The position numbers were made by a program, and so were the translations under genes. Positions 3,132 to 24,358 of a DNA stretch of 43,158 bases are shown here, piece after piece. Origin of the DNA: Hyphomicrobiales bacterium (GTDB lineage Bacteria; Desulfobacterota; Desulfobacteria; Desulfobacterales; SpSt-501); assembly GCA_050257775.1 (NCBI GenBank), contig JBLMXM010000139.1, positions 1 through 43,158 on the forward strand, in the 5' to 3' direction. The notes under the pieces were generated by a model. The model made no database searches and was not told the origin of the DNA. It saw only the letters and a list, made by a program, of their open reading frames with translations. The number at the start of each line of letters is the position of its first letter. Position 1 is the stretch's first letter.

Positions 3132-3146
3132 GCAACGGGCATGCCA
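3132..3146 (-). promoter_or_regulatory. Sigma-54 (-24/-12) promoter for the ZraP-like/YHS/SHOCT/MCO genes
   Basis: Minus strand reads TGGCAT-GCCCG-TTGCT. GG and GC have canonical spacing, against consensus TGGCAC-N5-TTGCW. About 85 nt upstream of the start at 3047. A sigma-54 activator is encoded directly upstream. Confidence 0.75.
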
Positions 3147-3386
3147 CAGTTCTCAGCGTATTGCGATATCATCTGTAACTAAATGAAAATACGTTAAATA
3201 AAAACTTGAAACTTTCTGCGCGTGCGATCGATACTTGTGGGGCACAATGAAGGATGGGTAAAAAGGTTACAGATCTGGGCTGGACTAGATTGGCGGTGTG
3301 TAAGAATAACCCAGCATCACCATGCCCGGGCCGGTGGTCTGCTTGGAAATCCGAGCAGGTACATTTGCCATGGCTTAGAGCTGGGC

Positions 3387-4766: not shown

Positions 4767-4773
4767 CGCAACC

Positions 4774-6573
4774 TCAAGAGGGTTCACTGCCGCGGCAGGG
4801 TAACCGGATGGCGAAAAGGCTTCCCCGGCCGGGAGCGCTCTCCGTGGTGATGTGGCCCTGATGAGCTTCGATAATCTTGTAGACGATCGGAAGCCCCAGG
4901 CCGGTTCCGGTTTTCTTGGTGGTAAAATACGGATCGAATATCTTGCCGAGGTTTTCAGGGGTAATTCCTTTCCCGGTATCCGATACAGTAATTTTAAAAT
5001 CCGTGGAGCCGTCAGCAAAGCAATTCACGGCCAACACGCCGCCGTCGTCCATCGCCTCGATGGCATTGAGATAGAGATTCAGCAGGCACTGAGTCAATCG
5101 ATCCGGATCGATCATCGCCCGGCAGACTCCCTCTCCAACGGTCAACTCGATGCGAATGCCCTTGGCGGCCGCATCCTGCTGAATCAGTTTAAGCGAACGG
5201 TCGAGCAGGGGCGCCAGGTCGGTTGCTCGGCGCTTCACATCCGTGGGCCGGGCAAATTCCAGAAGCTCCGTTATCGCCCGGTTCAACCGGTCCACCTCCT
5301 GGATCATGACGCCGGCGGCCTCGTGCGCATCGCTGCCGCTCTCGAACTGGCCGGCGAAAAAGGATGCCAGGCCCTTGATGGCGCTCAACGGGTTGCGGAT
5401 TTCATGCGCAACGCCGGCGGCCAGACCGCCCAGCGCCGCCAGTTTTTCCTGGCGTCGGATTTCCTCCTGCAGTCGGCGCACCTCGCCCAGGTCCCGTAAG
5501 ATCATAACCTCTCCGACAAAGTCCCCCACCTCGTTGACAATCCGGGCGGCGCTGACGCTGACCGGCACACTGCGGTTCCCCGCAAAACGGCACTCCACCT
5601 CCTGCTCGGTGATCGGTGCGCCCAAGTCGAGCGCTTTTTGAAGACGGCACAAACTCGCCGGAAGAAATTCGACCGGTTCCTTGCGCATTACTGCTCCGAC
5701 CGCAAGCCCGGTAATTTTTTCCGCGGCCTCGTTGAAAAAGGTGACCCGCCCGCTGCGGTCTGTCGCCATCAACCCGACCGGCAGATGGGCCACCACTTCG
5801 TCGGCGAATGCGCTGGTGTCGCGCAGCGACCGCCTGGCGCTGCGGTAACTCTGCATCCAAAACAAGGACACCAATCCGCCGAATCCCAGAACCAGAAGGA
5901 CAGCCGACAAAACCACCGTAGTCCGGATATCGGCTCGGGCCGCTTCCTCAAATGGGGTGACGTCCAGCCCCGCGACGATAATAAGCTTCTGGCGGGTTTG
6001 AGGTGCAAACCAATCATTCTCCGGTCCGCCAAATCCCATGGGGTGGTGGCCCATCATACCGGCCATGCCGCCAAGGTCTCGTTCCTCGCCGGCCGCCAGC
6101 GGACGGAAATAGCGGTGAACCTCGAAAGCTCTCCGGCCGCCGCCCAAATCAACCAGCTCCCAGTCTTCCTGAAAGTCGGGCCCGATATGGGCCAGCTTGG
6201 CGCCCTTGCGAAAAGCGGTTCCAATTTTGGACGGGTCACTGTCGGCCACAATCTTTCCGTCCTGGTCGACAACCGCCATGAAAAGGACATCCGGGAGGCG
6301 GGCCGTTTCCTCAAGCAACCGTTGCACCTGCTGGCCGCCCCAGTTCATTCCCATCATCCCGGTTCTTGCGCCGGCCTCAACGGCGCGAATCAAGGCCGCC
6401 CCCTTGGTGGTGAGCAACTCCGACATGTAACGCTCCTCCCGGTTGGTATTCTGAACGGCCAGCACGATCACCACCACCAGAAGAATGGCGGTTGATCCGA
6501 GAATGATCCACGGGGAGGTCTGCAGCGCGTTGTGAAAACGCTGTTGAAGCCGATAAAACATCCTGGTTCCCAC
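4774..6573 (-). CDS. Sensor histidine kinase (ZraS/HydH-like; periplasmic loop, PAS, HisKA, HATPase)
   Basis: H-box HEIRNPLSAIKG, N box LNLYLNAIEAM, G boxes DTGKGI and GTGLGL, and two TM segments flanking a roughly 170 aa loop. GTG at 6573 or ATG at 6561 as start. Stop lies 8 nt before the regulator start. Confidence 0.9.
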   Translation of the reverse strand: MGTRMFYRLQQRFHNALQTSPWIILGSTAILLVVVIVLAVQNTNREERYMSELLTTKGAALIRAVEAGARTGMMGMNWGGQQVQRLLEETARLPDVLFMAVVDQDGKIVADSDPSKIGTAFRKGAKLAHIGPDFQEDWELVDLGGGRRAFEVHRYFRPLAAGEERDLGGMAGMMGHHPMGFGGPENDWFAPQTRQKLIIVAGLDVTPFEEAARADIRTTVVLSAVLLVLGFGGLVSLFWMQSYRSARRSLRDTSAFADEVVAHLPVGLMATDRSGRVTFFNEAAEKITGLAVGAVMRKEPVEFLPASLCRLQKALDLGAPITEQEVECRFAGNRSVPVSVSAARIVNEVGDFVGEVMILRDLGEVRRLQEEIRRQEKLAALGGLAAGVAHEIRNPLSAIKGLASFFAGQFESGSDAHEAAGVMIQEVDRLNRAITELLEFARPTDVKRRATDLAPLLDRSLKLIQQDAAAKGIRIELTVGEGVCRAMIDPDRLTQCLLNLYLNAIEAMDDGGVLAVNCFADGSTDFKITVSDTGKGITPENLGKIFDPYFTTKKTGTGLGLPIVYKIIEAHQGHITTESAPGRGSLFAIRLPCRGSEPS

Positions 6574-6613
6574 TTGCGACTCGTCTGTTCAGGTAGATAT
6601 TGAATATAGTATG

Positions 6614-6642
6614 AAATTAATCGCCTGCAATCGATTTGTAAA
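6614..6642 (-). promoter_or_regulatory. Candidate sigma-70 promoter for the kinase/regulator genes
   Basis: Minus strand reads TTTACA-17 nt-TAATTT, in the AT-richer spacer between the MFS stop and the kinase start. Sequence match only. Confidence 0.3.
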
Positions 6643-6676
6643 CGCCGAACGGGTTCAGTAGCGCATGCACAGCAGG

Positions 6677-7921
6677 TCACTTAGGTAGAGAAGTAGAAGG
6701 CCCGGGGCTGCCCCAGACGGCATAGAATGCGGTCCCCAACGCGCCACAACAAAATGCCCCGATGAAGTTTACCTGTGGACTGATCTCCCACAGAAACGCG
6801 CCTCCGAACGCTGCAACCGATACAACAATATCCCGGACCAGGTAGTACAGGCCGAACATGCCCGCCCGGTGGGTCTCCGGTGAAAGTTCGACGATCAGGG
6901 CCTTGCGGGTCGGCTCGCCGAACTCCTTGAGCCCTCGGACGACGAAAGCCGGGACAAGCCATGCAAAACTCTCAGAGAACATCAGCACCAGTGGAAAGCA
7001 GGTAAACAGGACAAAGGTGGTGAGCACAAACGGCTTCTTACGGCCACGGTCGGCAAGCCAGGCGACGGGTATGTAGATGAGCACGGCCGTTGCCATCTCG
7101 ATCGTGGTGAGCGCCCCGAACTGCACCGCGCTCACCGGTTCGGCAATCCGCTTCATGCACCAGACTACCACGAACGCTTGGGTGATCTGTTCGCAGAACC
7201 GGATGAGGATATCGGAAACCAACAAATTCTTGAGATCAGGGCCCATCAACCGCCACATGGACCGGGGCGATCTGCCGGCGGGGTCCGAGACCGCGGCAGT
7301 CTCTCCCGGAGGAGGATCCTCGATAAGCTTCTGTTGCAGCATGATGGCCAGGAGGGCGAACACGAGGGCGAAACCGAAGGCCCAGCGCACCCCGTCGCGC
7401 TCCCCCCAGGCCTCAATGCAGAATCCTCCGAGAACCGGGCCCAAGGCCATTGGGATCCGGTTGACCAGCGAATGCATGCTGACCCCCATGGTGCGCTTGC
7501 CCGGTGGAAGCACGCGGGCGATCAGGCCCATGGTGGCGGGAAGGGATATCGACGACCATGAAATGAACAGCACCGAACCTGCAATCACGGCCTGCCAGGC
7601 CGGGACCAGGATGACGATGACGAACCCGGCCATGGCGATGAGGTTGAACACCAGCAACGCACGCTTGGTGCCGACCCGGTCCGAGAGATACCCTCCGGGG
7701 AAAGAGTAGAGAGCGGACAGAAGGTTGTCCAGTCCGTTCAGAAAGCCGATGGAAATGGCCCCGCCTCCCAGAGCCATCATGTACACCGGCAGGAACCGCT
7801 CCGACATGCGCTCGCCCATGCCGACGAGCACTACCATGCCCAGAACGGCGATGGTGCTGCGCTGAAGACCGAGAAAATTCAGAATTCTTCCCGGCAGGGT
7901 CGTTGAGGTGTCTGCGGCCAT
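6677..7921 (-). CDS. MFS transporter
   Basis: Roughly 12 hydrophobic segments across 414-430 aa, with a typical MFS two-half organisation and a central loop (PPPGETAAVSDPAGRSPRSMWR). ATG at 7921 preferred; GTG at 7969 is the alternative. Confidence 0.8.
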   Translation of the reverse strand: MAADTSTTLPGRILNFLGLQRSTIAVLGMVVLVGMGERMSERFLPVYMMALGGGAISIGFLNGLDNLLSALYSFPGGYLSDRVGTKRALLVFNLIAMAGFVIVILVPAWQAVIAGSVLFISWSSISLPATMGLIARVLPPGKRTMGVSMHSLVNRIPMALGPVLGGFCIEAWGERDGVRWAFGFALVFALLAIMLQQKLIEDPPPGETAAVSDPAGRSPRSMWRLMGPDLKNLLVSDILIRFCEQITQAFVVVWCMKRIAEPVSAVQFGALTTIEMATAVLIYIPVAWLADRGRKKPFVLTTFVLFTCFPLVLMFSESFAWLVPAFVVRGLKEFGEPTRKALIVELSPETHRAGMFGLYYLVRDIVVSVAAFGGAFLWEISPQVNFIGAFCCGALGTAFYAVWGSPGPSTSLPK

Positions 7922-7973
7922 GGGATCCGAAGCGGCCGGCGGCTTGCGTGCCCGGCGCCGGGCTTTCACCAGG

Positions 7974-8417
7974 TTAGTTCAGGGACTTCTGCTTGGCCGC
8001 TTCCAGCCGGCACCAGGCGTAAAGCGCGTCGTAGACCTCGAACTGGCGCTCGAGGTTTTGCAGATCGTCGGGATAACGCAGGCTGTAGCCGACGGCAATC
8101 GCCTCCAGTCCGGCGGCCAGGGGGTCCTGCTCGAGGCGGTCGGTGTCTGCGGCGTTGACGATCCGTGCCATGCGCTGCAGCGCCCGGTCGGTCAGGTTGT
8201 AGTTGCGGATGATGACATCGAAGGTGCACAGGTCGCCGTCGTGGGTCAGTGCGGCGCCCGGCGTGTCGAACGGGATGGCCCCTTCCCGCTCGGCCACGGC
8301 CATGACTTCACTCTTGGGTGCAAACAGGAACTGGGCATCCGAATCGATGAAACGGGTAATCAGCCAGGGGCAGGCCACCCTGTCTACATGGACATGCGAC
8401 CGAGTGATCCAGAGCAT
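7974..8417 (-). CDS. ChrB C-terminal domain (chromate-resistance-like) protein
   Basis: Start at the ATG at 8417. MLWITRSHVHVDRVACPWLITRFIDSDAQFLF is the characteristic ChrB_C N-terminal pattern. 147 aa. Confidence 0.75.
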   Translation of the reverse strand: MLWITRSHVHVDRVACPWLITRFIDSDAQFLFAPKSEVMAVAEREGAIPFDTPGAALTHDGDLCTFDVIIRNYNLTDRALQRMARIVNAADTDRLEQDPLAAGLEAIAVGYSLRYPDDLQNLERQFEVYDALYAWCRLEAAKQKSLN

Positions 8418-8625
8418 GGATGCGGTCCTCCAGCAAGCACGGCGCAATGTGCGTCGTTCGGGATGGTAATTCTCGTTCAGCGGTCTTAAGTCGACGGAAG
8501 CATAATAACACCCGTATCCGAAATTGAAAAGGGTGGCTTGGGGCCGTGTCTACGCTGGGAATCGAGCGAGAGCGGACGGGCCACTTCATGGATCCAGCTA
8601 ACATCCCCGGTGAGGTTGACAAGCG

Positions 8626-13666: not shown

Positions 13667-15208
13667 ATGCATTGGGACACTACCGCCAAGTATGAATTCC
13701 TGCTGAAAGTCACGAATGCGGTCGTCACCCAGACCAACCGCGAGGACATGTTTGCGGCCCTGGCCCGGGAGTTGAAGAAAAGTTTCGCTTACGATCGGCT
13801 GAGCATCTACATATTCATGCCGGACACCGAGGAGCTGGTGTACTTTGCCTCGGCCACCGGCGTGATCCCCAAGAATATGGCCGACCCCTCCGGCCGGCCC
13901 CTGGACAAGGCCTCCATCGCGCGCGAGGTCATCACGTCCAGGCGCCCGGTCTACCTGGAGGACCTGCGCCAGTACCGCCATTTTTCCACGGTGCCGGAAA
14001 TGTTGAAGTCCGGCCTCAAGGCCACCATGGCCTTCCCCCTTATTGTCCGGAAGAAAATTCTCGGCACGATGCACGTGTCCTTCAAGCAAAAACCGGCCGC
14101 ATTCGCTGAACTGGCCAGCGTGCTGAACGACCTGTCCCGGCAGGTCGCGATTGCCGTCGACAACATGTGGGCTCATGCCAGCCTGCAGGAACTCAACCGG
14201 AAGCTTCAGGAGCAGAACCGTTTTCTGCAGCGCCAGATCAAGGGCGACTGGGTCAAGAAAGAGAGCTTCGAATTCGCTTCCCGATCCATGCAGCAGGTTA
14301 TGGAACGCGTGAACCTGGTGGCCGGCACGGCCGCCTCCGTGTTGATTACCGGCGAAACCGGAACGGGGAAGGGCGTGCTGGCGGAATACATCCATGACCT
14401 CAGTCCGGTTCGGGACAACCTCTTTGTCAAAGTGAACTGCCCCGCCCTGGTCTCGGACCTGTTCGAAAGCGAATTGTTCGGCCATTCACGCGGGGCATTC
14501 ACCGGCGCTCACACCCAGCGGATCGGGCGCTTCGAGATGGCCCGGGGCGGGACGGTGTTCCTGGATGAAATCACGGAACTGCCCGTGAGCCTGCAGGCCA
14601 AGCTGTTGCATGTGCTCCAGGACCGCTCGTTTGAGCGGGTCGGCGATTCGCGCCCGATCGAAGCCAATTTTCGGGTCATCTCGGCCACCAACCAGGACCT
14701 GCAGCAAGCCATCGAGAAGGGCCGGTTCCGCCGGGACCTGTACTACCGCCTGGCCACCGTCACCATCGAGCTGCCACCCTTGCGTGAGCGCCGGGAGGAT
14801 ATCCCGATCATCATCGAACGGCTGTCTGCGGTCGAAGAGGCCCATTCCAACCGCCCCATACCGGTTTTCTCGCCGTCGGCGTTGGATTACCTCTGCCGGG
14901 GCGACTGGCCCGGGAACATCCGAGAACTGAGCAATCTCCTGAAAACCGTATTCGTGCTGAGGGCCGGCAAGACCATTTCGGTTGGCGACGTCAAACACTT
15001 CCTGGGGGAGGTTTCCATCAAGAACCCGGAGAATTTGAGCGCTCTGCTTGCTTCGGAAAAAAAAATCATCGAAAAGGCGCTGCGGGAATCGGGCGGCCGG
15101 GTGGCCGGCCCGAGGGGAGCCTCGCGCAAGCTGGGCCTGCCGACTTCGACCCTTCAGTACCGCTTGAAAAAGCACGCGATCAATCCGAAAGATTTCCTTC
15201 CGGCGTAG
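13667..15208 (+). CDS. Sigma-54-dependent transcriptional activator with N-terminal GAF-like sensor domain
   Basis: About 170 aa N-terminal sensor region. AAA+ Walker A GETGTGKGVLAEYIH, GAFTGA motif (SRGAFTGA), C-terminal HTH (ASRKLGLPTSTLQYRLKK). 513 aa. Confidence 0.9.
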   Translation: MHWDTTAKYEFLLKVTNAVVTQTNREDMFAALARELKKSFAYDRLSIYIFMPDTEELVYFASATGVIPKNMADPSGRPLDKASIAREVITSRRPVYLEDLRQYRHFSTVPEMLKSGLKATMAFPLIVRKKILGTMHVSFKQKPAAFAELASVLNDLSRQVAIAVDNMWAHASLQELNRKLQEQNRFLQRQIKGDWVKKESFEFASRSMQQVMERVNLVAGTAASVLITGETGTGKGVLAEYIHDLSPVRDNLFVKVNCPALVSDLFESELFGHSRGAFTGAHTQRIGRFEMARGGTVFLDEITELPVSLQAKLLHVLQDRSFERVGDSRPIEANFRVISATNQDLQQAIEKGRFRRDLYYRLATVTIELPPLRERREDIPIIIERLSAVEEAHSNRPIPVFSPSALDYLCRGDWPGNIRELSNLLKTVFVLRAGKTISVGDVKHFLGEVSIKNPENLSALLASEKKIIEKALRESGGRVAGPRGASRKLGLPTSTLQYRLKKHAINPKDFLPA

Positions 15209-15246
15209 AACCCAATATTGGGTTATAAAAACCAAAATTGGGTTTT
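15209..15246. promoter_or_regulatory. Tandem palindromic sites (candidate enhancer/UAS for the GAF activator)
   Basis: Perfect 16-bp palindrome AACCCAATATTGGGTT (15209-15224), followed by the related imperfect AAAACCAAAATTGGGTTTTT (15227-15246). They lie about 75-110 bp upstream of the sigma-54-like promoter. Confidence 0.5.
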
Positions 15247-15320: not shown

Positions 15321-15336
15321 TGGCATAGATATTGTA
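15321..15336 (+). promoter_or_regulatory. Sigma-54-like promoter for the flavoprotein/Rieske/cytochrome b operon
   Basis: TGGCAT-AGATA-TTGTA. The -24 element and spacing are canonical; the -12 element has TTGT instead of TTGC. It is 86 nt upstream of the ATG at 15422, with palindromes upstream and an activator gene adjacent. Confidence 0.5.
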
Positions 15337-15421: not shown

Positions 15422-17149
15422 ATGACGTTCGAGAAACTGAAGGCCGACATCCTGATCGTCGGCATGGGGGCAGCCGGTCAACTCGCAGCCTTGTACGCCC
15501 ACGACGCTGACCCGCGCCTGGACATCGTCATCGTGACCAAAGCCCTCAAGGGCAAGGGCGGCTGCAGCCGGATGGTGCAGGGCGGGTTTAACGTGGTTTT
15601 GAACTCGGCCGACTCCCACGACAAACACCTGATGGACACCCTCAAGGGCGGGCAGTACATCAACGACCAGGAACTGGCGAAAACCCTGGTCGAAGAGGCC
15701 ACACCCACCATCAAGGAGATGGAGACCCGCTTCGGCTGTTTTTTCGACCGCAACCCCGACGGAACCATTCACCAAAAACCCTTCGCCGGCCAATCCTTCG
15801 ACCGCACCGTTCACAAGGGCGACCTGACCGGGATCGAAATCATCAGCCGCACGACCGAACAGGTGATGAAGCGCAACATCCGGGTTCTGGAAGAGTGTCG
15901 CGCCGTCGATCTCCTGAAAGATGCCTCCGGCCGGGAGGTGACGGGGTCGTTGCTGTTGAATATCCGCACAGGCCAGTTCATCGTCGTGGAAGCCTCGGTG
16001 ACCCTGGTCGCCACCGGCGGCGGCCCGACTCAATATCGGTTTCATGCGCCCGGGCCGGAAAAATCAGTGGACGGCCTGGGCATGCTGTATCGCGCCGGAG
16101 TGGTCATGCGCGATATGGAAATGATCCAGTTTCATCCCACCGGCCTGATCGTTCCCGACAGCGTCGTGGCCGGGTCGCTCCTGGAAGAAGGCCTTCGCGG
16201 CGCGGGCGCGCACTTGCTGAACGGCCAGGGTGAGCGCTACATGCAGCGCTACGCACCGGATCTGGCCGAGCGTGCCACGCGCGACGTGGTCAGCCGCTCC
16301 GCCTTCCTGGAAATGACGGCCGGCCGGGCTTGCAAAGAGGGGGGCGTTCACATTGTGGCCGCACACCTGGGAGCGGATTGGGTTGAGCGCAATTTCCCGG
16401 GCATGTGCAAGCGATGCCGGCAGTTCGGCTATGACCTGGCCCGCGCCCCAGTCCCGGTTTCTCCCTCAGCGCATTTTTTCATGGGCGGCGCCCGGATCGA
16501 CAAGCACGCGAAAGCCTCTTTGCATCGGCTGTTCGTCGCCGGCGAAGATGCCGGCGGCGTGCACGGCGGCAACCGGTTAGGCGGCAACGGCATCTGCGAG
16601 TCATGCGTATTCGGACGCCAGGCGGGCAAGGCGCTGGCCGCCTTTATGCGGGACGACGACCGCCGCCCCCCTGAAACCGCACCCGGTCTGGCGGCGGAGA
16701 CAGCGGCACGACTCATGGGCCCCCTGCAGCGCTCGACCGGCGAAGGCCCGTTCGGACTGCGGGATGAGCTGCGCGAGATCAACTGGTCCAAGGTCGGCAT
16801 CGTGCGCAACGGGCCCGGCCTCGAAGAGGCTTTGGATGCCTTCGTCTCCCTGCGCAGCGCCGCACAAAAAGTCCGGATCACCGGACCTCCAACCTACAAC
16901 ATGCCCTGGAACACATACATCGATCTTCTGAACATGATCGATGTCTCCATCCTATCCGCCTCGTGCGCGCTCGCCCGCCGGGAGTCGCGTGCAGCCCATT
17001 ACCGCAGCGACTGCCCGGAGCAGGACGACGCGAACGGACTTTACAATATCTTTTCGACCCGGGGTCCGCGGGGGATGCCCGAACTGAAGACCGAGCCTGT
17101 CCAGTTCAAATACAAAACCCTTGAGGAATGCCAGAAGTATAAAAAGTAG
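15422..17149 (+). CDS. Fumarate reductase/succinate dehydrogenase-type flavoprotein subunit (SdhA/FrdA-like)
   Basis: ADILIVGMGAAGQ FAD fold. Catalytic motifs FHPTG, EEGLRGAGAHLLN, RATRDVVSR, SAHFFMGGARID and HGGNRLGGNGICESCVFGRQAG. 575 aa. Confidence 0.9.
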   Translation: MTFEKLKADILIVGMGAAGQLAALYAHDADPRLDIVIVTKALKGKGGCSRMVQGGFNVVLNSADSHDKHLMDTLKGGQYINDQELAKTLVEEATPTIKEMETRFGCFFDRNPDGTIHQKPFAGQSFDRTVHKGDLTGIEIISRTTEQVMKRNIRVLEECRAVDLLKDASGREVTGSLLLNIRTGQFIVVEASVTLVATGGGPTQYRFHAPGPEKSVDGLGMLYRAGVVMRDMEMIQFHPTGLIVPDSVVAGSLLEEGLRGAGAHLLNGQGERYMQRYAPDLAERATRDVVSRSAFLEMTAGRACKEGGVHIVAAHLGADWVERNFPGMCKRCRQFGYDLARAPVPVSPSAHFFMGGARIDKHAKASLHRLFVAGEDAGGVHGGNRLGGNGICESCVFGRQAGKALAAFMRDDDRRPPETAPGLAAETAARLMGPLQRSTGEGPFGLRDELREINWSKVGIVRNGPGLEEALDAFVSLRSAAQKVRITGPPTYNMPWNTYIDLLNMIDVSILSASCALARRESRAAHYRSDCPEQDDANGLYNIFSTRGPRGMPELKTEPVQFKYKTLEECQKYKK

Positions 17150-17186: not shown

Positions 17187-17531
17187 ATGCAGACCGAGCA
17201 AACCCGCATCGAATACCGCAAACCCCTTCAATGGGGCGAATTCGACCCGAACCGGCGCAGACATATCTATGTGGGCATGTGGGCCTGGCTGTGGCAGCGC
17301 ATCTCGGCCCTCGCCATCATCGTCCTGCTGGCCCTGCACATCACGCTGACGTACAAGCCGTGGCTGCAATTCCTGCTGCTGCTGGCGGTCACGTTTCATG
17401 CCGCCCTGGGTTTGCGCGTCATTCTGCTGGACTTCAACCTCGTGAACGTCAAATATCAGCGCGCCCTGGTCTGGGTGCTGACCGGTTTAGGGTTAATCGT
17501 CTTCGTCCTCGTCTGGAAGTCCATCTATTGA
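17187..17531 (+). CDS. Small 3-TM membrane anchor (SdhC/SdhD-like)
   Basis: Start at the ATG at 17187 (MQTEQTRIEY...). Three hydrophobic helices with His residues (LALHITL, VTFHAALG). WLWQRISALAIIVLL resembles anchor-subunit helix I. Sits between the flavoprotein and Fe-S genes. Confidence 0.7.
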   Translation: MQTEQTRIEYRKPLQWGEFDPNRRRHIYVGMWAWLWQRISALAIIVLLALHITLTYKPWLQFLLLLAVTFHAALGLRVILLDFNLVNVKYQRALVWVLTGLGLIVFVLVWKSIY

Positions 17532-17569: not shown

Positions 17570-18850
17570 GTGTCGAGCGCTCAACATAACAAACGAAAAA
17601 TCGAAATATACCGGTTCGACCCCACGCAGGGCGGCGAGGGCCATTTCGACCGGTTCGAACTGCCGATCCAGGACGAGACCTGCACCACCATCCTGGATGT
17701 CCTGCTCCGGCTTCAAAAGGAACAGGACCCGAGCTTGTCGTTCCGCTATGCCTGCCGGGTCAACATGTGCGGCTCGTGCGGCATGGTGATCAACGGCCGG
17801 GAGGGACTGGCCTGCAAAACCAACGTGTCCGACTTTCCCGGGGGCCAGACCATCACCCTGCGGCCGCTCAACCATTTCCCGGTGGTCAAGGACCTGGTGG
17901 TGGACATGGGCCCCTTCTTCCAGAGCTACGAATCGTGCCTGCCCTTTTTTGACCCCCGGGAAATCCAACCGGAGCCGGCTATCATACGACCCGATTCCGC
18001 GGAGCGGCAGGCCATCGGCCTCGCTACCGAATGCATCGCCTGCGGCTGCTGCGTTTCCAGCTGCACCATGGTCAATTACCATCCCGGCTACGCCGGACCG
18101 GCGCCGTTGAACCGCGCCTTCACCCTGCTGATGGACAGCCGCGACGGTCTCTATGAGCAGCGCCTGGAGCGGGTGCTGGACTCCTGCTACCACTGCCGCA
18201 CCGAATTCAACTGCACCGAGGTCTGTCCCAAGGAAATCAGCTGCACCAGGGCCATCAAGCACATCCAGCGGCTGGCGATGAAAGGCCCCTTCCGGAGCAA
18301 GGAGGCGGAACCGGCGCCGGGCACGATGCCGCCGGCCGAGCCTGCGTCCGCTGCCGCCGAGGCGGCCTGTGCCGCAGACGACCCCGCCATGAGCCGCCGG
18401 CGTTTTCTCACCCGGCTGACCGCCGGCATCGGCGCCGCGTCCACCCTGCTCGTAGGAGGTGTGCTGGCTTCGACCTTCGCAGGCCCGGGCCTGCGCCGCA
18501 CTCCCCCTCAGTGGATACGGGCCGGAGGCGTGGACGCCTTCCCGGCAGGAGAGGTGTCCACGGTTCGATTGACCTACGCCGAAACCAACGGTTTTTATGT
18601 ACAGGAGATGGCCAGGCCCATCATGGTGTGGCGCCAACCCCAGACGCATGAGTTCGTGGTCTACAGCTCCGCGTGCACGCACTTGGGCTGCACTGTCCGC
18701 TGGGACGCGAATCAGAAGCTGTTCCTGTGTGCCTGTCATGGCGGGGCATTCAACCTGGACGGCAGCGTCAAGTCCGGTCCACCGCCGCGGCCACTGGACC
18801 GCTTGGCGCTTCGGATCGACAGTGGGAACCTCCTGGTCAAGATGGTGTGA
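17570..18850 (+). CDS. Fusion protein: SdhB/FrdB-type iron-sulfur subunit + Pro/Ala linker + TM helix with twin-arginine motif + Rieske [2Fe-2S] domain
   Basis: GTG start with AAGGAG RBS. N-terminal part has CRVNMCGSCGMVINGREGLAC, CIACGCCVSSC and CYHCRTEFNCTEVCP. Then linker SKEAEPAPGTMPPAEPASAAAEAACAADDPA and MSRRRFLTRLTAGIGAASTLLVGGVLAS. Rieske boxes are CTHLGC (18674-18691) and CACHGG (18728-18745). One uninterrupted frame of 426 aa. Confidence 0.85.
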   Translation: MSSAQHNKRKIEIYRFDPTQGGEGHFDRFELPIQDETCTTILDVLLRLQKEQDPSLSFRYACRVNMCGSCGMVINGREGLACKTNVSDFPGGQTITLRPLNHFPVVKDLVVDMGPFFQSYESCLPFFDPREIQPEPAIIRPDSAERQAIGLATECIACGCCVSSCTMVNYHPGYAGPAPLNRAFTLLMDSRDGLYEQRLERVLDSCYHCRTEFNCTEVCPKEISCTRAIKHIQRLAMKGPFRSKEAEPAPGTMPPAEPASAAAEAACAADDPAMSRRRFLTRLTAGIGAASTLLVGGVLASTFAGPGLRRTPPQWIRAGGVDAFPAGEVSTVRLTYAETNGFYVQEMARPIMVWRQPQTHEFVVYSSACTHLGCTVRWDANQKLFLCACHGGAFNLDGSVKSGPPPRPLDRLALRIDSGNLLVKMV

Positions 18851-18851: not shown

Positions 18852-20279
18852 ATGCCGAAGATGAAGGAAACCATCAGGCATCGCATCGGATGGGAAACCC
18901 ACCTGGAACCCTTTCTGTACAAGAAGCTGCCCGCAAGCCTGGGGTGGTCCGCCACTCTCGGCAGCCTGTGCGCCCTGCTCTTTACCCTGATGGCCGTGAG
19001 CGGAATGTTTTTGGCGATGTATTACAGCCCGTCGCCCGACCGCGCCTACCAGTCCATCGACTACATCATGACCCAACTTCCGTTGGGGCCCATCCTGCGC
19101 GGAATTCATCACTGGGGCGCGGCGGCCATGGTGCTGGCCGTCGTTGCACATTTGGCCACGGTCTTTTTTGCCGGGTCCTTCAAGACCCCGCGCGAGTTGA
19201 CCTGGGTGCTGGGGGTCGGCTTGCTTTTGGCGACTCTCGGGCTCGGTTTCACCGGCTACCTGCTGCCCTGGGACCAGAAAGCCTACTGGGCCACGGTCGT
19301 CAGCGCCAACATCCCCAGGGACATGCCCCTGGTCGGCACAACGTTGACCCGGCTGGTGCTAGGGGGTGACTCGGTGTCGGGGCTCACTCTCACCCGTTTC
19401 TACGCGATCCACATGCTCGTCTTGCCGGCCCTGGCGGCCTTGATGATGGCCGCCCACATCTACCTGGTCCGGCTGCACGGCGTCTCCGAGCGCGGCCCGG
19501 AACCGGATGGGATGCCTCAAACCCCTCAACCGGAATCCCCGCCGCTCTACCGATTTTTCCCGGAGCACACGGCTCGAAGCTTGATGGTGTTTGCGGGGGT
19601 CCTTGCCCTCATCTTGGCTCTGTCGGTGTTCGCGCGCATCCCCAAGGAAGACATCGCCGGAACGGTGGATGAATCTTACCTGCCCCGTCCGGAGTGGTAT
19701 TTCATGTGGCTCTTCCAGTTGCTGACCTATTTCCCGGGCTCCTCCGAGGTGATCGGCAGCCTGGTGCTGCCCCTGGTTGGAGTGCTTTTGCTTTTCTTCC
19801 TGCCCCTTCTGGATCGATCCAAATTCAGGGGGCCCGCCGATCGGCCCCTGGCAACCGCCGCGGGGGTCACCGGGATCGTCTGCATCGTCTATCTCACGGT
19901 GACCGGTTTCGGCGGAGCCCTGCCCTATGGCCGCTACCTCCGGATGCCTGATCGGCCGCTGACCTTTAGTGAAGAAATGGGAATGCAGGCCTATGTCAAG
20001 CACGATTGCGCCTACTGCCACAACATCCAGGGTCAGGGCGGCCGGCGGGTCGGCCCGGACCTGGCCAATATAAAAGCCAAGGGTCGCACGGTCGCGGAAT
20101 TGGTTGCCTTTATCAAGAATCCACAGTCGAAAAGCACGTGGTCCATCATGCCCAAGTACGATCTAACTGAGGCGGAATTGCGAGCCCTGGCGGATTTCGT
20201 GCTTTGCCTCGACTTCGATCGTCACAACGCAAAAACCATCACCAAAGAGGAAATCCTCAAGGGTGTCGTCACGAAATAG
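18852..20279 (+). CDS. Cytochrome b (b6 + subunit-IV-like in one chain) fused to a C-terminal monoheme cytochrome c domain
   Basis: Start at the ATG at 18852, 1 nt after the Rieske-fusion stop. Heme-b His pairs in RGIHHWGAAAMVLAVVAHL and RFYAIHMLVLPALAALMMAAHIYL. Qo motif PEWY (19689-19700). C-terminal CAYCH (20007-20021) with downstream MPKY. Confidence 0.88.
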   Translation: MPKMKETIRHRIGWETHLEPFLYKKLPASLGWSATLGSLCALLFTLMAVSGMFLAMYYSPSPDRAYQSIDYIMTQLPLGPILRGIHHWGAAAMVLAVVAHLATVFFAGSFKTPRELTWVLGVGLLLATLGLGFTGYLLPWDQKAYWATVVSANIPRDMPLVGTTLTRLVLGGDSVSGLTLTRFYAIHMLVLPALAALMMAAHIYLVRLHGVSERGPEPDGMPQTPQPESPPLYRFFPEHTARSLMVFAGVLALILALSVFARIPKEDIAGTVDESYLPRPEWYFMWLFQLLTYFPGSSEVIGSLVLPLVGVLLLFFLPLLDRSKFRGPADRPLATAAGVTGIVCIVYLTVTGFGGALPYGRYLRMPDRPLTFSEEMGMQAYVKHDCAYCHNIQGQGGRRVGPDLANIKAKGRTVAELVAFIKNPQSKSTWSIMPKYDLTEAELRALADFVLCLDFDRHNAKTITKEEILKGVVTK

Positions 20280-20378: not shown

Positions 20379-22532
20379 ATGCAGCATTTCGATTTGGGTG
20401 GGGCTCGGATCGAACCGCCGGAACCTGTCGTGGCCGGATGCTACACCACCCTGACGTTTACTTACACTGCCGGTCATCCCATCGACGACACCGGCTTTGT
20501 GAAGCTTGCGTTTCGGTTTGCCAGCGATTTCGGAACCCCTCAATTCGACTCCCCGCAGCTCCCTAACTACTGCAGCGTAGCCACCACGGGAGACTGCCGG
20601 ATCGAATACCGGTGGGACCCCAAGGGCCACACTCGGCCCTGGGGACGATCCCTGTTCCTGAAGGTCATGGGCGGGTTCCTCGATCGGGGGCAGACGATCA
20701 CCGTCGTCTTCGGGGACAGGTCCGCCGGATCGCCGGGATGGCAGATGCAGACCTTTTGCGAGGAGAGCTTCGAATTCAAGACCCTCGTGGATCCCATTGC
20801 CACCTATGAGTTCAAAGAGCTCCCGCAATCCCCCACCCTTCGCATCGTGGCCGGCCGGCCTGCGCGAGCGGTTTGCATCGCACCCTCTGAGGTCCTACTC
20901 GGCGAGGGCTTCACCTACCATCTCAAACTCGAAGACCGCTGGGGGAATCCCACCGCGCTCCCGGTCCCATTGAATCACCCGGGGCTCAACCGCGCAGGGT
21001 TCTCGCGCCTCACCGCCACCGACGAGACCACCGGCCTGTCGGCTGCCAGCAACCCGGTCCTCGTCTCGGATGGCGCAGTTCGCCTGCGACGTTGCTGGGC
21101 TGATCTGCACGGGCAGTCGGAGGAAACCATCGGCACCAACTCCATCGAGGATTACTTCAGATTTGCCCGTGACTATGCCCGCGTGGACGCTTGCGGGCAC
21201 CAAGGCAACGACTTTCAAGTCACGGACGACTTCTGGAAAACCATCGACAAGACCACCCGGAAATATTACAAACCGAATCGATTCGTCACGTTTCCCGGCT
21301 ATGAATGGAGCGGAAACACTCCGTTGGGCGGCGACCGCAATGTCTATTTCACATCCGAGGGAGGCCGCATCACCCGCAGCTGCACCGATCTCCTGCCGGG
21401 AAAAACTTCGATCTACAGGGATTCCCCCACGGCCGTCCGGCTCTTTGAGAACCTCAATCGCAGCAAAGGCCCCCAACCTTTTGTATTCGCCCACGTGGGC
21501 GGGCGATACGCGGACATGCGGATTCATGATCCGGAGGTGGAGATCGCCGTCGAGGTGCATTCGGCCTGGGGCACCTTCGAATGGCTCGTGGATGACGCGC
21601 TTTCGCGAGGATACCGCATCGGCATCTGCGCCAACTCCGACGATCACAAGGGCCGCCCGGGTGCATCCTATCCGGGGGCCGGGAGGTTCGGCTCCCTGGG
21701 CGGCCTGACCTGCATCCTGACGCGCCGGCTCGATCGCCAGCATCTCTACGACGCGCTCAGGTCCCGTCATTTTTACGCGACAACCGGCAACCGCAGCCTC
21801 GTGGACGTCAGAGTGATCATGGCCGACAACCGCCAGGCCATGATGGGAGATATCGTGGAGGCTGGATCAGGAACTCCGGTGCTGCACGTCGACGTCGCGG
21901 GCACCGCGCCGGTGGAGCGGGTTATCATCCGCAATGGTCTGAAGACGGTGCAGGTGCTGCGCCCTTATAGCCGGGAGGATCTCGGCCGGCGCATCAAGAT
22001 CCTCTGGAGCGGCGCCGAGGTCCGCGGCCGCGCCCGAATGACTTCCTGGGACGGGCATCTCCAGGTAACCGGCAATCGCATCCTGGATGCAGTGCCCATC
22101 AATTTCTGGAACGCCAACCGTCCCATTGTAAAGACCGGCGAAAATCGCCTGGCGTGGACATCGGTCACGACCGGCGGAGTCGCCGGCATGATCCTCACGC
22201 TGGAAAGCCCCCGGGAAGGTTCGATAAGCCTGAAGACGGCCCAACGATCGGTCCGCCTGGCCGTCAGATCGGCAGGGCTGGATCCCCGGACTTGGGCCTG
22301 CGGCGGTCTTTGTAAGAAAATCGAAATATGTCGATTACCCGATCAGCCTCCGCCGCAGGAATTCTCTTTTTCAATCCCGCTGCCCGGCCTGGCGCGGGGA
22401 GACAACCCCGTTTTCATCTGCATGGTCCAGGAAGACGGGCACATGGCCTGGACCAGCCCGGTTTATCTCGTAAAGGGCGGGCTCAAAGCGTCAAGCAGTG
22501 ACCGGAAAAAACGCCCCCGTTTTCCGTTTTGA
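20379..22532 (+). CDS. Large hypothetical protein with PHP/DUF3604-like metal-dependent hydrolase core
   Basis: 717 aa with no signal peptide. After a roughly 230-aa N-terminal beta-rich region come PHP-like motifs: WADLHGQSEE, ACGHQGNDF, PGYEWSG, HVGGRY, EVHSAWGTFEW, ICANSDDHKGRPG and LYDALRSRHFYATTGNR. The family call is made from motif memory only. Confidence 0.6.
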   Translation: MQHFDLGGARIEPPEPVVAGCYTTLTFTYTAGHPIDDTGFVKLAFRFASDFGTPQFDSPQLPNYCSVATTGDCRIEYRWDPKGHTRPWGRSLFLKVMGGFLDRGQTITVVFGDRSAGSPGWQMQTFCEESFEFKTLVDPIATYEFKELPQSPTLRIVAGRPARAVCIAPSEVLLGEGFTYHLKLEDRWGNPTALPVPLNHPGLNRAGFSRLTATDETTGLSAASNPVLVSDGAVRLRRCWADLHGQSEETIGTNSIEDYFRFARDYARVDACGHQGNDFQVTDDFWKTIDKTTRKYYKPNRFVTFPGYEWSGNTPLGGDRNVYFTSEGGRITRSCTDLLPGKTSIYRDSPTAVRLFENLNRSKGPQPFVFAHVGGRYADMRIHDPEVEIAVEVHSAWGTFEWLVDDALSRGYRIGICANSDDHKGRPGASYPGAGRFGSLGGLTCILTRRLDRQHLYDALRSRHFYATTGNRSLVDVRVIMADNRQAMMGDIVEAGSGTPVLHVDVAGTAPVERVIIRNGLKTVQVLRPYSREDLGRRIKILWSGAEVRGRARMTSWDGHLQVTGNRILDAVPINFWNANRPIVKTGENRLAWTSVTTGGVAGMILTLESPREGSISLKTAQRSVRLAVRSAGLDPRTWACGGLCKKIEICRLPDQPPPQEFSFSIPLPGLARGDNPVFICMVQEDGHMAWTSPVYLVKGGLKASSSDRKKRPRFPF

Positions 22533-22596
22533 TTATTCTGTTGCGCCGTGGGGGGCGTGGCTCGGACATCCAACGTCAAAGGAGGCTGAGTTCGCC

Positions 22597-23478
22597 ATGT
22601 CGAGTTTCAACTACGGGATCATCGAGGACGCGGCAAAGGAATTGTACATCCGGGCGCTTTGCGATCTTCCACCGGACGTCCGCGACGCGCTGAAGAAGGC
22701 CTACGCAAGAGAAACCAAGGCCGCCGCTAAAGAGGCTTTCAAAGCGATGCTGAAGGCGGTTGACATCGCCGACCGTCAGAAGACCCTGGTGTGCCAGGAC
22801 ACCGGCCTGCCCATTTACATGGTCAAGCTCGGAACCCGCTTTCACTGGGACGGCGCCGAAATACAGGAGCGGCTCAGCGTCGGGGCCCGGCGCGCAACCC
22901 AGGAGTTCCCCTTCCGCGGGAGCTCCACCCATCCCATCCACCGGGTGAACCCCCAGACCTCGGTGGGCAAGAATCTACCGGTAGTGTATGTCGACTTCAT
23001 CAAGGGCGCGGAGTACCTGGATATCCTCATGGTGCCGAAAGGCTCCGGGTCGGAAAACATGAGCGCCATGAAAATGTTCATACCGGCGGATGGTGTAAAG
23101 GCGATCAAGAAGTTCATCATCGACACCTTCATCGCCTCGGGGGCCAACCCGTGTCCTCCGGGCGTCATCGGCGTGGGGATCGGCGGAACGGCCGACCTGG
23201 TGATGCGGCTGGCCAAGGAGGCCATCGCACGGCCGATCGGCCGGCGCAACGAGGATCCGGACATCGCCCGGTTGGAAACCGAGCTCGAGGAGGCCATCAA
23301 CGCGACCGGAATCGGCGCCATGGGGCTCGGCGGGGATGTCTCCACCCTCGGAGTGCACATCGAGATGGCCTATACCCACATCACGCAGAACCCTGTCGCC
23401 GTGAACACCCAGTGCTGGCCGGCTCGGCGGGCGCGGGCCCGGATCTTCCCGGACGAACGCATCGAATATGGCTATTAG
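22597..23478 (+). CDS. Fe-S hydro-lyase, tartrate/fumarate subfamily, alpha subunit (class I fumarase-type)
   Basis: Start at the ATG at 22597 with AAAGGAGG RBS. LVCQDTGLPIY (CQDTG motif). 293 aa. Confidence 0.88.
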   Translation: MSSFNYGIIEDAAKELYIRALCDLPPDVRDALKKAYARETKAAAKEAFKAMLKAVDIADRQKTLVCQDTGLPIYMVKLGTRFHWDGAEIQERLSVGARRATQEFPFRGSSTHPIHRVNPQTSVGKNLPVVYVDFIKGAEYLDILMVPKGSGSENMSAMKMFIPADGVKAIKKFIIDTFIASGANPCPPGVIGVGIGGTADLVMRLAKEAIARPIGRRNEDPDIARLETELEEAINATGIGAMGLGGDVSTLGVHIEMAYTHITQNPVAVNTQCWPARRARARIFPDERIEYGY

Positions 23479-23496
23479 AAGCCATAAAAGATTATA

Positions 23497-23719
23497 ATGG
23501 CACGCCGTAGCCCGGATGAACGATTGAGGCAGCGGCTGACGGTCTGAGCCGCTTACGGGCGCTTGGACCGGACCCGATAACAAAGCTACATCAGAGCCCA
23601 ACCAACCGCGCTAACCTCCATCCGTTTATCCGGAGACTGGCCTGGTCCGGTCCTAGAGCCCGTTGGCGGCGAGTTTCAGCCGCGTACGAAACCGCTTATC
23701 CGGGTGGAGGCGCCTACCT
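23497..23719 (+). repeat. Structured intergenic repeat element, copy A (223 nt; candidate ncRNA or MITE-like element)
   Basis: Aligns end to end with 32781-33003 (+) and with the reverse complement of 38765-38989. The 20-mer GGCGGCGAGTTTCAGCCGCG is identical in all three copies. Shared hairpin AGCGGCT-N9-AGCCGCT and long-range stems (details in findings). No conserved ORF. Confidence 0.85.
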
Positions 23720-23767
23720 TATATTGGTGTTAGCGCGAGCGAGCTTGACAGGAAGGAGCATTGAGCT

Positions 23768-24358
23768 ATGGGGCAGCATCATCTTCAAACACCGTTCTCG
23801 GAAGAGGTTATCCGGAAGCTCAGGGTCGGCGACATCGTCTATTTTGACGGAACCCTTTTTGGAATCCGGGACCTCACCCAGATTTACATGTTCGATCAGA
23901 ACCACGAACCGCCGGTAAGCCTTGCCGGGATGCCCTGCATCCACACCGCCCCCAGTTTGAGGAAAGTCGGCGACCGATGGGAGCCGATCTGCGTGGGAAC
24001 GACCACCAGCGGCCGCATGGATCGGTTCACACCGGCCCTGATCGAACGGTATGGTGTTCGGGCGGTGATCGGCAAAGGCGGGCTGTATGAGGGAAGCCTC
24101 AAGGCCATGCAGAAATGTGGAGCGGTGTATCTCGCCATCGTGGGCGGAGCCGCATCCCTGGAGACCCAGCAGATCGTCGGGGTGGAAGCGGTCTACTGGG
24201 AACACCTGCATCCCGAGGCGCTTTATCAGTTCCGCGTGAAGGACTTCGGCCCGCTCACGGTGGCTATGGACTCGCATGGCGGCCATCTCTACCAGGACAT
24301 TAAGGCGGAGGCTCAGCGAAGACTCACCGAAATTTACAAACGCCTGGGCGTCGAGTGA
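23768..24358 (+). CDS. Fe-S hydro-lyase, tartrate/fumarate subfamily, beta subunit (class I fumarase-type)
   Basis: 196 aa. LRVGDIVYFDGTLFGIRD and RAVIGKGGL motifs typical of the C-terminal/beta subunit. GGAAGGAG RBS. Confidence 0.88.
   Translation: MGQHHLQTPFSEEVIRKLRVGDIVYFDGTLFGIRDLTQIYMFDQNHEPPVSLAGMPCIHTAPSLRKVGDRWEPICVGTTTSGRMDRFTPALIERYGVRAVIGKGGLYEGSLKAMQKCGAVYLAIVGGAASLETQQIVGVEAVYWEHLHPEALYQFRVKDFGPLTVAMDSHGGHLYQDIKAEAQRRLTEIYKRLGVE

Follow-up and report, generated by a model that had tools for sequence, protein, structure and literature searches.

A single reading frame that unites the iron-sulphur subunit of complex II with an entire Rieske subunit of a cytochrome bc-type complex is encoded in a Desulfobacterales genome (assembly GCA_050257775.1, deposited as Hyphomicrobiales bacterium). 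The stretch analysed, hereafter the window, comprises positions 1 to 43,158 (43,158 nucleotides) of the forward strand of contig JBLMXM010000139.1. The fusion open reading frame (ORF), sdhB::rieske, is located at 17570..18850 on the forward strand, which also carries the neighbouring genes from the sigma-54 activator to fumarase and the -24/-12-like site described below, and specifies a product of 426 amino acids (aa; ~46 kDa). This protein probably forms a tether, inserted into the membrane by the twin-arginine translocation (Tat) pathway, between a complex II head and a menaquinol-type Rieske/cytochrome b/c complex. Its gene forms part of a cassette with the order sdhA - sdhC - sdhB::rieske - cytb::cytc, followed in the window by a DUF3604 insert and the genes for the alpha and beta subunits of fumarase.

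Translation of the window gives a GTG start codon with a Shine-Dalgarno sequence (AAGGAG) 7 nt upstream, and across the junction the frame reads ...FRSKEAEPAPGTMPPAEPASAAAEAACAADDPA-MSRRRFLTRLTAGIGAASTLLVGGVLAS..., with S243 at 18296, the ATG codon of M274 at 18389-18391 and R276/R277 at 18395-18400. An earlier note on this DNA, made from the letters alone, had quoted a translation and coordinates that match this ORF exactly, and had read it as an SdhB-type subunit joined in frame to a whole Tat-type Rieske subunit, which Pfam, PDB matches and homologues confirm. The SdhB/FrdB domain covers residues 10-238 (17597..18283), as delimited by PDB entry 1nek_B, NCBIfam models and invariant cysteines. 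It comprises a Pfam Fer2_3 domain (residues 10-117; E 4.6e-32) and 4Fe-4S dicluster domains (residues 153-224), while in a PDB sequence search E. coli SdhB (1nek_B) aligns end to end with residues 10-237 (1.5e-45). Both NCBIfam PRK05950 (231 bits against a cut-off of 228) and TIGR00384 score above their cut-offs. Among 63 aligned homologues, the set on which residue conservation in the fusion protein is based, the [2Fe-2S] ligands C62, C67, C70 and C82 are all present and invariant, as are the [4Fe-4S]/[3Fe-4S] ligands C155, C158, C161, C165, C209, C215 and C219. Both SdhB motifs, CxxCxxCxxxC and Cx5Cx3CP, are thus found, with P220 providing the proline of the latter. Furthermore, a flavoprotein (sdhA) and an anchor (sdhC), the partners of an SdhB subunit, are encoded directly upstream in nearly all of the 63 fusion loci.

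The C-terminal portion carries a bc-type Rieske [2Fe-2S] head (residues 313-426; 18506..18847), identified by Pfam (Rieske, residues 344-410; E 1.1e-10), PDB matches, an AlphaFold2 (AF2) model and invariant ligands. Box I (C369-T-H-L-G-C374; 18674-18691) and box II (C387-A-C-H390-G-G-A-F; 18728-18751) incorporate the ligand and disulphide residues C369, H371, C374, C387, C389 and H390, which are invariant in 6/6 cases. The head matches Rieske proteins of Thermus, b6f complexes, Chlorobaculum and Kuenenia in the PDB. Whole cyanobacterial PetC chains align to residues 268-410, N-terminal anchor included, and since this alignment begins at residue 268 the second half corresponds to a complete Rieske subunit with its anchor; a Pfam PetC transmembrane-anchor match to residues 269-307 is sub-threshold (E 0.0022). 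As in bc-type Rieske proteins, the anchor is a single N-terminal helix and a cytochrome b gene lies directly downstream. The Ser/Tyr residues that follow box II in high-potential proteins (CPCHGS-Y) are not present, the box II of the family being CxCHGGxF. This is the low-potential signature expected of a Rieske protein working with menaquinol, and speaks against a high-potential form rather than against bc-type membership. In the AF2 model the [2Fe-2S] domain is confidently predicted, the Rieske head attains predicted local distance difference test (pLDDT) values of 85-95, and a single long helix (residues 272-302) follows a disordered segment (239-271), with pLDDT values below 50 in the linker. 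Foldseek gives SdhB chains as its top matches, which align with the first half, and matches Rieske proteins of b6f, Chlorobaculum and Kuenenia with the second.

The same architecture is widespread. The best 120 matches in a collection of 5.8 billion proteins are nearly all full-length fusions (57-95 % identity) with few truncated fragments, and derive from JGI, ENA, NCBI and Logan assemblies, while an exhaustive search of the 50 %-identity representatives yielded further fused clusters at just 38-44 % identity. By means of phmmer and a survey of 82 loci, 63 loci with an SdhB::Rieske ORF were found in ~55 genomes of at least three phyla, isolates included, with the gene order nearly always sdhA - sdhC - sdhB::rieske - cytb::cytc - fumA - fumB. 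The main holders are the Desulfobacterota (Desulfobacterales, Desulfocapsaceae, Desulfobaccales, Syntrophaceae and Desulfovibrionaceae, the last including D. cuneatus DSM 11391, Bilophila and Mailhella), Acidobacteriota and Nitrospirota. The fusion is also carried by the complete genome of a Desulfosediminicola isolate (CP050699) and by single metagenome-assembled genomes (MAGs) labelled Planctomycetota, Myxococcota and Leptospirales, several of the MAG taxon labels resting on short contigs. Among the contigs of a one-genome-per-species set, the best identity to the window protein is ≤68 %, while a 95 %-identical metagenome contig (P0001) has the same gene order as the window. In the 95 %-identical metagenome contig (L083, 3099-3400), the fusion gene and the cytochrome b gene are ~300 nt apart, as against 1 nt in the window. 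Current annotations name the protein either 'succinate dehydrogenase iron-sulfur subunit' or 'Rieske 2Fe-2S domain-containing protein', and NCBIfam holds no model specific to the SdhB-Rieske fusion.

The earlier note had suspected a probable stop-codon loss in the source genome, which the recurrence of the fusion at these distances and in isolates contradicts. The orthologous loci were likewise inspected for intact sdhB and rieske genes that are adjacent but separate, and none were found in these or in the 82-locus survey. The only split pieces, in locus L063, occur amid frameshift-broken genes. As the adjacent-but-separate state was not seen in any surveyed locus, simple stop-codon loss is unsupported. 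It is barely conceivable that an error of assembly or sequencing, or a stop codon lost very recently, has given rise to a non-functional fusion. Indel errors can indeed make such fusions, as in locus L056, where a frameshift affects the last ~20 Rieske codons and the frame runs on into cytochrome b. However, the window's fusion recurs in frame in more than 120 independent clusters from all four assembly sources and in CP050699 and D. cuneatus, and it persists to 38 % identity. Linkers of many lengths all hold the frame, and the G+C content of third codon positions (GC3) stays at 0.75-0.90 throughout the linker region. The fusion is thus real and old, neither an artefact nor a recent accident. 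Several candidates were set aside during this survey. The short 'stand-alone' matches P0138, P0131 and P0134 look like contig-end fragments rather than split orthologues, and P0231 was rejected as such as its N-terminus is unrelated. A 906-aa SdhB::Rieske::CytB::CytC ORF in the long-read MAG locus L056 (6001-8721) was not accepted as a true triple fusion. Its last ~20 Rieske residues are out of frame, and such a fusion would be topologically impossible because the periplasmic C-terminus of the Rieske domain would be joined to the cytoplasmic N-terminus of cytochrome b. This ORF is most likely an indel artefact.

Between the two halves lies a Pro/Ala-rich linker (residues 239-274; 18284..18391), which ends in the non-conserved Met274. 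In the fused family the distance from the last SdhB helix to the arginine pair (RR) ranges from 9 to 73 aa (median 37) with zero conserved columns, and some members have linkers of just 9-18 aa. The suggestion that the linker has the character of a translated spacer is thus borne out by its variable length and sequence and its low pLDDT. It was also correctly observed that the ATG at 18389 lacks a Shine-Dalgarno sequence, the duplex with the anti-Shine-Dalgarno sequence amounting to -1.4 kcal/mol, compared with -6.9 to -7.7 kcal/mol at the four real starts of the operon. The further idea that this ATG was once the start codon of a separate gene did not hold, given that a Met within ≤6 residues upstream of RR occurs in just 33/131 fused proteins, and the internal ATG is a lineage-specific coincidence. 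These data also bear on whether the gene yields two polypeptides, through a restart near RR or cutting of the linker after assembly, in which case fusion would merely ensure equal synthesis and co-assembly. The variable, Pro/Ala-rich and predicted disordered linker is typical of protease-accessible tethers, and an in-frame ATG stands two codons ahead of RR both here and in the closest relatives. Nevertheless, the weak duplex and the scarcity of a nearby Met argue against a restart, linkers of 9-18 aa leave little room for processing, and no conserved cleavage motif was seen in the aligned homologues. This alternative is considered unlikely.

Directly behind the linker is the twin-arginine motif S275-R-R-R-F-L-T281 (18392..18412). 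R276, R277 and F279 are invariant in 63/63 aligned homologues, RR followed by a hydrophobic stretch occurs in 131/132 fused proteins, and the family consensus among 131 fused proteins, S-R-R-x-F-L-K, equals the textbook Tat consensus. Each of the fusions at 38-44 % identity carries RR-x-F/G ahead of a hydrophobic stretch. Given the invariance of RR-x-F and the near-universal hydrophobic stretch, the arrangement of SdhB and Rieske domains is not a chance juxtaposition, and the Tat motif is under selection, being retained while the linker and the internal Met drift. The motif is followed by a single transmembrane helix at residues 283-301 (LTAGIGAASTLLVGGVLAS; 18416..18472), recognised from hydrophobicity and the AF2 model, and then by GPGLRR. 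SRRRFLT and these moderately hydrophobic residues are the sequence features of a Tat substrate. Among the eleven helices predicted in the operon it has the lowest hydrophobicity, with a Hessa-scale sum, taken without position weights, of +2.70 versus -2.2 to +2.07 for the others. The family mean is +2.14, and 89 % of the members have a net positive charge within the next ten residues. In experiments, low hydrophobicity and C-terminal positive charges proved characteristic of Tat-dependent transmembrane helices and prevented their use of the Sec pathway (Tooke et al. 2017, PMC5449189). The fusion helix thus looks like a Tat-dependent helix with Sec-avoidance features. Its location is unusual: the motif begins at residue 275 of 426 rather than at the N-terminus, and no hydrophobic segment was found in residues 1-280 of the fusion, so that the even number of preceding Sec helices (Tooke 2017) is absent. 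The membrane-insertion question raised in the earlier note is a real one, with RR and helix standing behind a soluble three-cluster domain of ~270 residues.

The SdhB domain is placed in the cytoplasm because the flavoprotein has no signal peptide and starts directly at its FAD-binding fold, and because fumarase is co-encoded. Fumarase is a cytoplasmic enzyme in characterised bacteria. The Rieske head is placed in the periplasm because its bc-type disulphide Cys pair is invariant and the partner cytochrome b has a periplasm-side PEWY (Qo motif) and a periplasmic c-haem domain. A single helix linking the domains, running from an inner N-terminus to an outer C-terminus, matches this topology exactly. 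A folded [2Fe-2S] domain cannot cross Sec, which together with the invariant RR on the cytoplasmic side of the helix points to Tat. The best reading is that of an uncleaved internal Tat signal-anchor, with the Fe-S domain of SdhB remaining in the cytoplasm and the folded Rieske head being exported. The RR could alternatively be a relic, with the helix inserted by the signal recognition particle (SRP)/Sec/YidC route, or with the Rieske domain left in the cytoplasm, where it would add one more cluster to the electron wire of complex II. The internal position is indeed atypical for Tat signals, and Sdh1 of Mycobacterium smegmatis has a Rieske-type cluster within complex II (PDB 7d6v; PMC8054011). 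This is nonetheless judged very unlikely, considering that S-R-R-x-F-L-K is kept over 38-95 % identity while its flanks drift, that the helix has Sec-avoidance features, and that the disulphide cysteines, PEWY and c-haem domain have all been retained, in addition to the barrier that Sec poses to the folded head.

The presumed membrane partners are encoded on either side of the fusion gene. A cytochrome b::class I cytochrome c fusion (18852..20279; Pfam Cytochrome_B 1.6e-45, Cytochrom_B_C and Cytochrom_C) begins 1 nt past the fusion stop codon, and its counterpart follows the fusion gene in 55 related loci. Its cytochrome b moiety combines a b6-like first half with a subunit-IV-like second half, has seven predicted helices and matches PDB cytochrome b6 (8.4e-47). 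PEWY is located at 19689-19700 and the CAYCH haem motif of the cytochrome c domain at 20007-20021, and the c-haem domain is placed in the periplasm because of the seven predicted helices. Across the family (n=56), PEWY occurs in 49/56, PDWY in 4/56 and PEWF in 3/56 sequences, CxxCH in 56/56, and H-x13-H and H-x14-H in 51/56 each. The window sequence has all of these motifs, so that the four haem-ligand histidines (helices B and D) and the PEWY of a Rieske/cytochrome b complex are in place. The SdhC-like anchor (17187..17531; Pfam Sdh_cyt 2.7e-07) has 114 aa and three predicted helices, and matches M. smegmatis Sdh2 SdhC (PDB 6lum_C; 5.7e-10). Its H51 and H71, one in each of the first two helices, are invariant among 61 sequences. 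With one 112-114-aa three-helix SdhC-like gene per cassette (L001, L003, L074 and L075), it falls outside the complex II anchor classes A-F, which have two three-helix subunits, one subunit of five to six helices or the non-classical SdhE/F anchor. The single protein might represent half of a dihaem anchor, and two copies could form such an anchor as a homodimer. In an acidobacterial relative (L079), a pair of paralogous anchors is encoded instead. As far as can be judged from the residues conserved, all parts of the module are maintained, including SdhC H51/H71, the four cytochrome b haem histidines, CxxCH and every cluster ligand.

From these components the following mechanism may be proposed. 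The N-terminal SdhB domain would fold, acquire its three clusters and bind the flavoprotein in the cytoplasm, where the Rieske domain would likewise fold and gain its cluster. TatBC would then recognise the internal RR and helix as an uncleaved signal-anchor, the folded Rieske head would be moved to the periplasm, and the helix would be set free into the membrane, its N-terminus on the inner and its C-terminus on the outer side. On the cytoplasmic face, every Rieske subunit in the dimeric Rieske/cytochrome b/c complex would thus bear a complex II catalytic head attached to it covalently, with the peptide bond enforcing an obligate complex II-III unit of fixed 1:1 stoichiometry and keeping the parts close. 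Through menaquinone, such a unit would connect the periplasmic c-type haem with the fumarate/succinate couple in the cytoplasm, which the adjacent fumarase would supply, and quinone would be exchanged between closely apposed sites. The most economical mechanism would thus be a reversible succinate/fumarate : cytochrome c oxidoreductase, with menaquinone exchanged by the neighbouring sites.

The tether might instead serve direct electron transfer, with SdhB docked on cytochrome b and the haem bL-bH chain exchanging electrons with fumarate/succinate in place of a quinone at Qi. In known bc and b6f structures the Rieske helix has its N-terminus beside cytochrome b, at the cytoplasmic surface. Some members have very short linkers, and a single three-helix anchor is encoded, as against the canonical two subunits or one subunit of five to six helices. 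Moreover, if the enzyme is a fumarate reductase, it would consume quinol just as a bc complex running forward does, so that simple channelling would be of no benefit in that mode, and cytochromes b fused to cytoplasmic Fe-S/flavin modules have been listed (Kao & Hunte 2014, PMC4122944). However, the SdhC anchor and its pair of conserved histidines have been kept in all cases, the module presumably functions without cytochrome b in locus L075, and linkers of up to 73 aa demand no tight docking. Direct transfer is regarded as tentative and rather unlikely. A bolder extension, which we would entertain only as a slim chance, combines direct exchange between the low-potential chain of cytochrome b and fumarate/succinate with a new kind of Tat substrate, namely a bitopic protein that carries a folded Fe-S domain at either membrane face and is inserted by Tat alone from an internal signal. 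In this arrangement SdhB would lie against cytochrome b on the cytoplasmic side and exchange electrons with haem bH or the Qi site, so that fumarate reductase, and not quinone, would partner the Q-cycle on that side. This is reminiscent of Mitchell's original Q-cycle, as quoted in PMC5600118, where the second electron at centre N came from succinate dehydrogenase.

The direction in which the proposed tethered unit would run may be reflected in the flavoprotein (15422..17149), an SdhA/FrdA-type protein of 575 aa (Pfam FAD_binding_2 6.3e-67 and Succ_DH_flav_C), for which the best NCBIfam match is TfrA, below the cut-off. At approximately residues 41-52 it has the motif GKGGCSRMVQGG where SdhA and FrdA have R-S-H-T...Q-G-G, and the histidine for covalent flavin adenine dinucleotide (FAD) is missing. 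A Gly/Cys aligns with His45/His44 of E. coli SdhA/FrdA, and no histidine is found there in HMMER alignments against 1nek_A, 2b76_A and 7d6v_A. The motif, including its cysteine, is invariant across the main fusion family. The flavoprotein of the window thus lacks the histidine which carries 8-alpha-N3-histidyl FAD in the R-S-H-T/S motif of succinate:quinone oxidoreductases. Covalent attachment lifts the potential of the flavin by ~100 mV and is needed for succinate oxidation (Iverson et al. 2023, PMC10238741), and its missing histidine therefore favours fumarate reduction. The sequence hints at a flow from cytochrome c through a reverse-running bc complex to menaquinol and fumarate. A route from cytochrome c through reverse bc has been drawn for autotrophs that feed the reductive tricarboxylic acid (TCA) cycle from the level of cytochrome c (Lücker et al., PMC3578206). 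The invariant cysteine could, nonetheless, form another covalent flavin link, which would leave succinate oxidation possible.

Several observations weigh against the Tat-inserted tether and its proposed function. We infer Tat dependence, the topology, an intact 46 kDa polypeptide and the supercomplex from sequence, and AF2 confidence is low for the 4Fe-4S domain as well as the linker. No natural precedent was found in the literature for recognition by TatBC of a signal 275 residues into a protein, behind a folded cofactor domain and without preceding membrane helices. A rough neighbour-joining tree of the SdhB domain, constructed without support values, distributes the fused proteins over at least three groups with unfused ones between them. 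In the deep fused variant (L062 and L074) the flavoprotein keeps the canonical FAD histidine, and the direction may thus differ within the fusion family. Finally, locus L075 has a related SdhA-SdhC-SdhB-FumAB module without a Rieske/cytochrome b partner, and the complex II part is thus presumably able to work alone.

Variant loci provide further information on the association of the two complexes. The nearest unfused relatives are found in Syntrophaceae MAGs with the order rieske - cytb::c - sdhA - sdhC - sdhB. In two of these (L065 and L066) the unfused SdhB is 52 % identical to that of the window and shares an operon with a stand-alone Tat-Rieske and a cytochrome b::c protein, while the Rieske protein and cytochrome b are just ~30 % identical to their window counterparts. 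The deep fused variant L074 has the rearranged order sdhA - fer2 fragment - sdhB::rieske - cytb::c - sdhC - fumAB - sucC. Association of the complexes therefore seems to have been selected, as linkers may be as short as 9-18 aa, the rearranged L074 keeps the parts, and L065 and L066 are unfused yet have them in the same operon. The complex II and III parts are likely to be close together. Some further features of these variants were observed. In L065 (1-6732), L066 (1-6732) and L069, the full order is a HdrD-like CCG protein, a small two-CxxCH protein, the stand-alone Tat-Rieske (157 aa), cytochrome b::c, sdhA, sdhC and sdhB. The cytochrome b of this unfused Syntrophaceae variant has FPWY in place of PEWY, with the second helix-D histidine seemingly missing. 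An extra ORF of 136 aa, which duplicates the N-terminal [2Fe-2S] domain of SdhB, directly precedes the fusion gene in L074 (5989-6399) and also occurs in L062. In three proteins (P0123, P0140 and P0151) an SdhB domain leads into membrane helices and a c-type cytochrome domain, with no Rieske head, and P0123 looks like the SdhB of the fusion family attached to the last part of cytochrome b::c.

Directly upstream of the operon is the gene for a sigma-54-dependent activator with a GAF sensor domain (13667..15208; Pfam Sigma54_activat 1.1e-66, GAF_2 and HTH_8), and many related loci likewise have a homologous regulator beside the cassette. At 15209-15245, just after the activator gene and upstream of sdhA, a perfect 16-bp palindrome (AACCCAATATTGGGTT) occurs together with a second, imperfect copy, which could represent a binding site of the activator or a terminator. 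A weak candidate -24/-12-like site (TGGCAT-N5-TTGTA; 15321..15336) lies ~86 nt upstream of sdhA. It has two mismatches, and a scan of the window for sigma-54 promoters showed no excess over chance (13 found versus 21.7 expected), so that the candidate is weak, with its position and orientation alone in its favour. Downstream of cytochrome b::c, a 717-aa DUF3604/PHP-like metallohydrolase (20379..22532; Pfam DUF3604 1.2e-10, with a weak match to the NCBIfam CehA_McbA domain) precedes the fumarase genes. It is missing in most related loci and present in L063 and L007, and is lineage-specific and probably outside the core module. The end of its gene overlaps the longest fumarase-alpha ORF by 35 nt. 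The class I fumarase is encoded at 22498..24358 (alpha ORF 22498-23478, beta 23768-24358; Pfam Fumerase 1.3e-91 and Fumerase_C 3.2e-31), and FumA and FumB come after cytochrome b in most loci that extend far enough. A non-coding gap of 290 nt (23479-23767) between alpha and beta contains a 27-nt inverted repeat (23548-23574 and 23644-23670; 85 % complementary), while Rfam gave zero matches across the window, this gap included.

Elsewhere the window encodes two 2-oxoacid:ferredoxin oxidoreductases, methylmalonyl-CoA mutase with MeaB, a family III CoA-transferase, a TctABC carboxylate transporter and an aldehyde:ferredoxin oxidoreductase, as well as a glyoxalase-family protein with weak similarity to methylmalonyl-CoA epimerase, below the family cut-off in NCBIfam. 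Judged by its gene content, the window represents the TCA/methylmalonyl-CoA neighbourhood of an anaerobe. A metal-stress set occupies the left end (31-8447), and comprises a multicopper oxidase, a CpxP-like heavy-metal resistance protein, a PAS histidine kinase and a sigma-54 response regulator, together with an MFS transporter and a protein with a ChrB C-terminal domain.

The succinate/fumarate couple has a potential of +30 mV and menaquinone one of -74 mV, and electron transfer between them is an energetic bottleneck when menaquinone-using anaerobes oxidise propionate or acetate or fix carbon by the reductive TCA cycle. A hard-wired complex II-III unit would suggest a new solution to this succinate/menaquinone bottleneck of menaquinone-using anaerobes. 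The fusion protein would also show cleanly if Tat is able to work from a signal behind a large, folded and cofactor-loaded domain that must remain cytoplasmic. Either of the current annotation names hides half of the protein, and thereby the presence of a bc complex in these genomes. Complex II is almost never found in supercomplexes (Iverson 2023, PMC10238741). A covalent and stable bacterial complex II-III link, if true, would show that tight coupling can be selected and would offer a natural object for structural work.

In comparison with known Tat substrates, the fusion is most like actinobacterial QcrA (Streptomyces coelicolor Sco2149) and other dual Sec/Tat proteins. In these an internal RR likewise directly precedes the last helix, which is weakly hydrophobic and followed by positive charges, and a folded cofactor domain is exported with the signal left uncleaved. 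The internal Tat motifs known to date, in actinobacterial Rieske proteins, Sco3746, polyferredoxins and the YkuE family, all stand behind Sec-inserted helices (Keller 2012, PMC3471235; Tooke 2017, PMC5449189). Whereas these dual Sec/Tat proteins have 2-4 Sec-inserted helices before RR, the fusion has its ~270-residue soluble three-cluster domain, and since this part holds no helix, no Sec step is expected to be needed. Unlike in the case of QcrA, Tat would need to tolerate a bulky N-terminal domain that is already folded and remains on the inner side.

Among complex II enzymes, the fusion shares its fold, the three cluster motifs and a partner flavoprotein with E. coli SdhB (1nek_B) and FrdB (1kf6_B), and the anchor of its cassette is related to M. 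smegmatis Sdh2 SdhC (6lum_C). It differs from canonical complex II in that the subunit extends C-terminally into the membrane and periplasm, that there is one three-helix anchor, and that the flavoprotein lacks the covalent-FAD histidine. This combination of features, along with the internal Tat signal behind a soluble cofactor domain, does not fit any complex II class of the 2023 review (Iverson 2023, PMC10238741) or any NCBIfam model. The thiol:fumarate reductase of methanogens provides a parallel, as TfrB (NCBIfam NF004898) also has an SdhB-type domain with a second redox domain at its C-terminus and works with a TfrA-type flavoprotein. The TfrB extension is, however, a cytoplasmic HdrD-like CCG domain in a soluble enzyme, and the NCBIfam TfrA/TfrB matches of the fusion module are below the equivalog cut-offs. 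On the complex III side, the module resembles the 'PEWY-cyt c' clade (Kao & Hunte 2014, PMC4122944), which is characterised by PEWY, a class I cytochrome c at the C-terminus of cytochrome b and a Rieske protein predicted to be of low potential. The clade includes Acidobacteria and Nitrospira, with membership of the window cytochrome b judged by architecture alone, and the paper makes no mention of an SdhB-fused Rieske protein or of gene linkage to complex II. A full-text literature search, subscription journals being outside its reach, returned no description of the SdhB-Rieske fusion architecture. Physical attachment of a respiratory complex to a complex III dimer is known from the I-II-III2-IV2 supercomplex of Tetrahymena (8b6g), CII2CIII2CIV2 of Perkinsus (9fq7) and the obligate actinobacterial III2IV2 supercomplex. 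These are non-covalent, and those with complex II are eukaryotic, whereas the bacterial link would be a peptide bond. By sequence each half of the fusion is an ordinary member of its family, SdhB/FrdB and bc-type Rieske, respectively.

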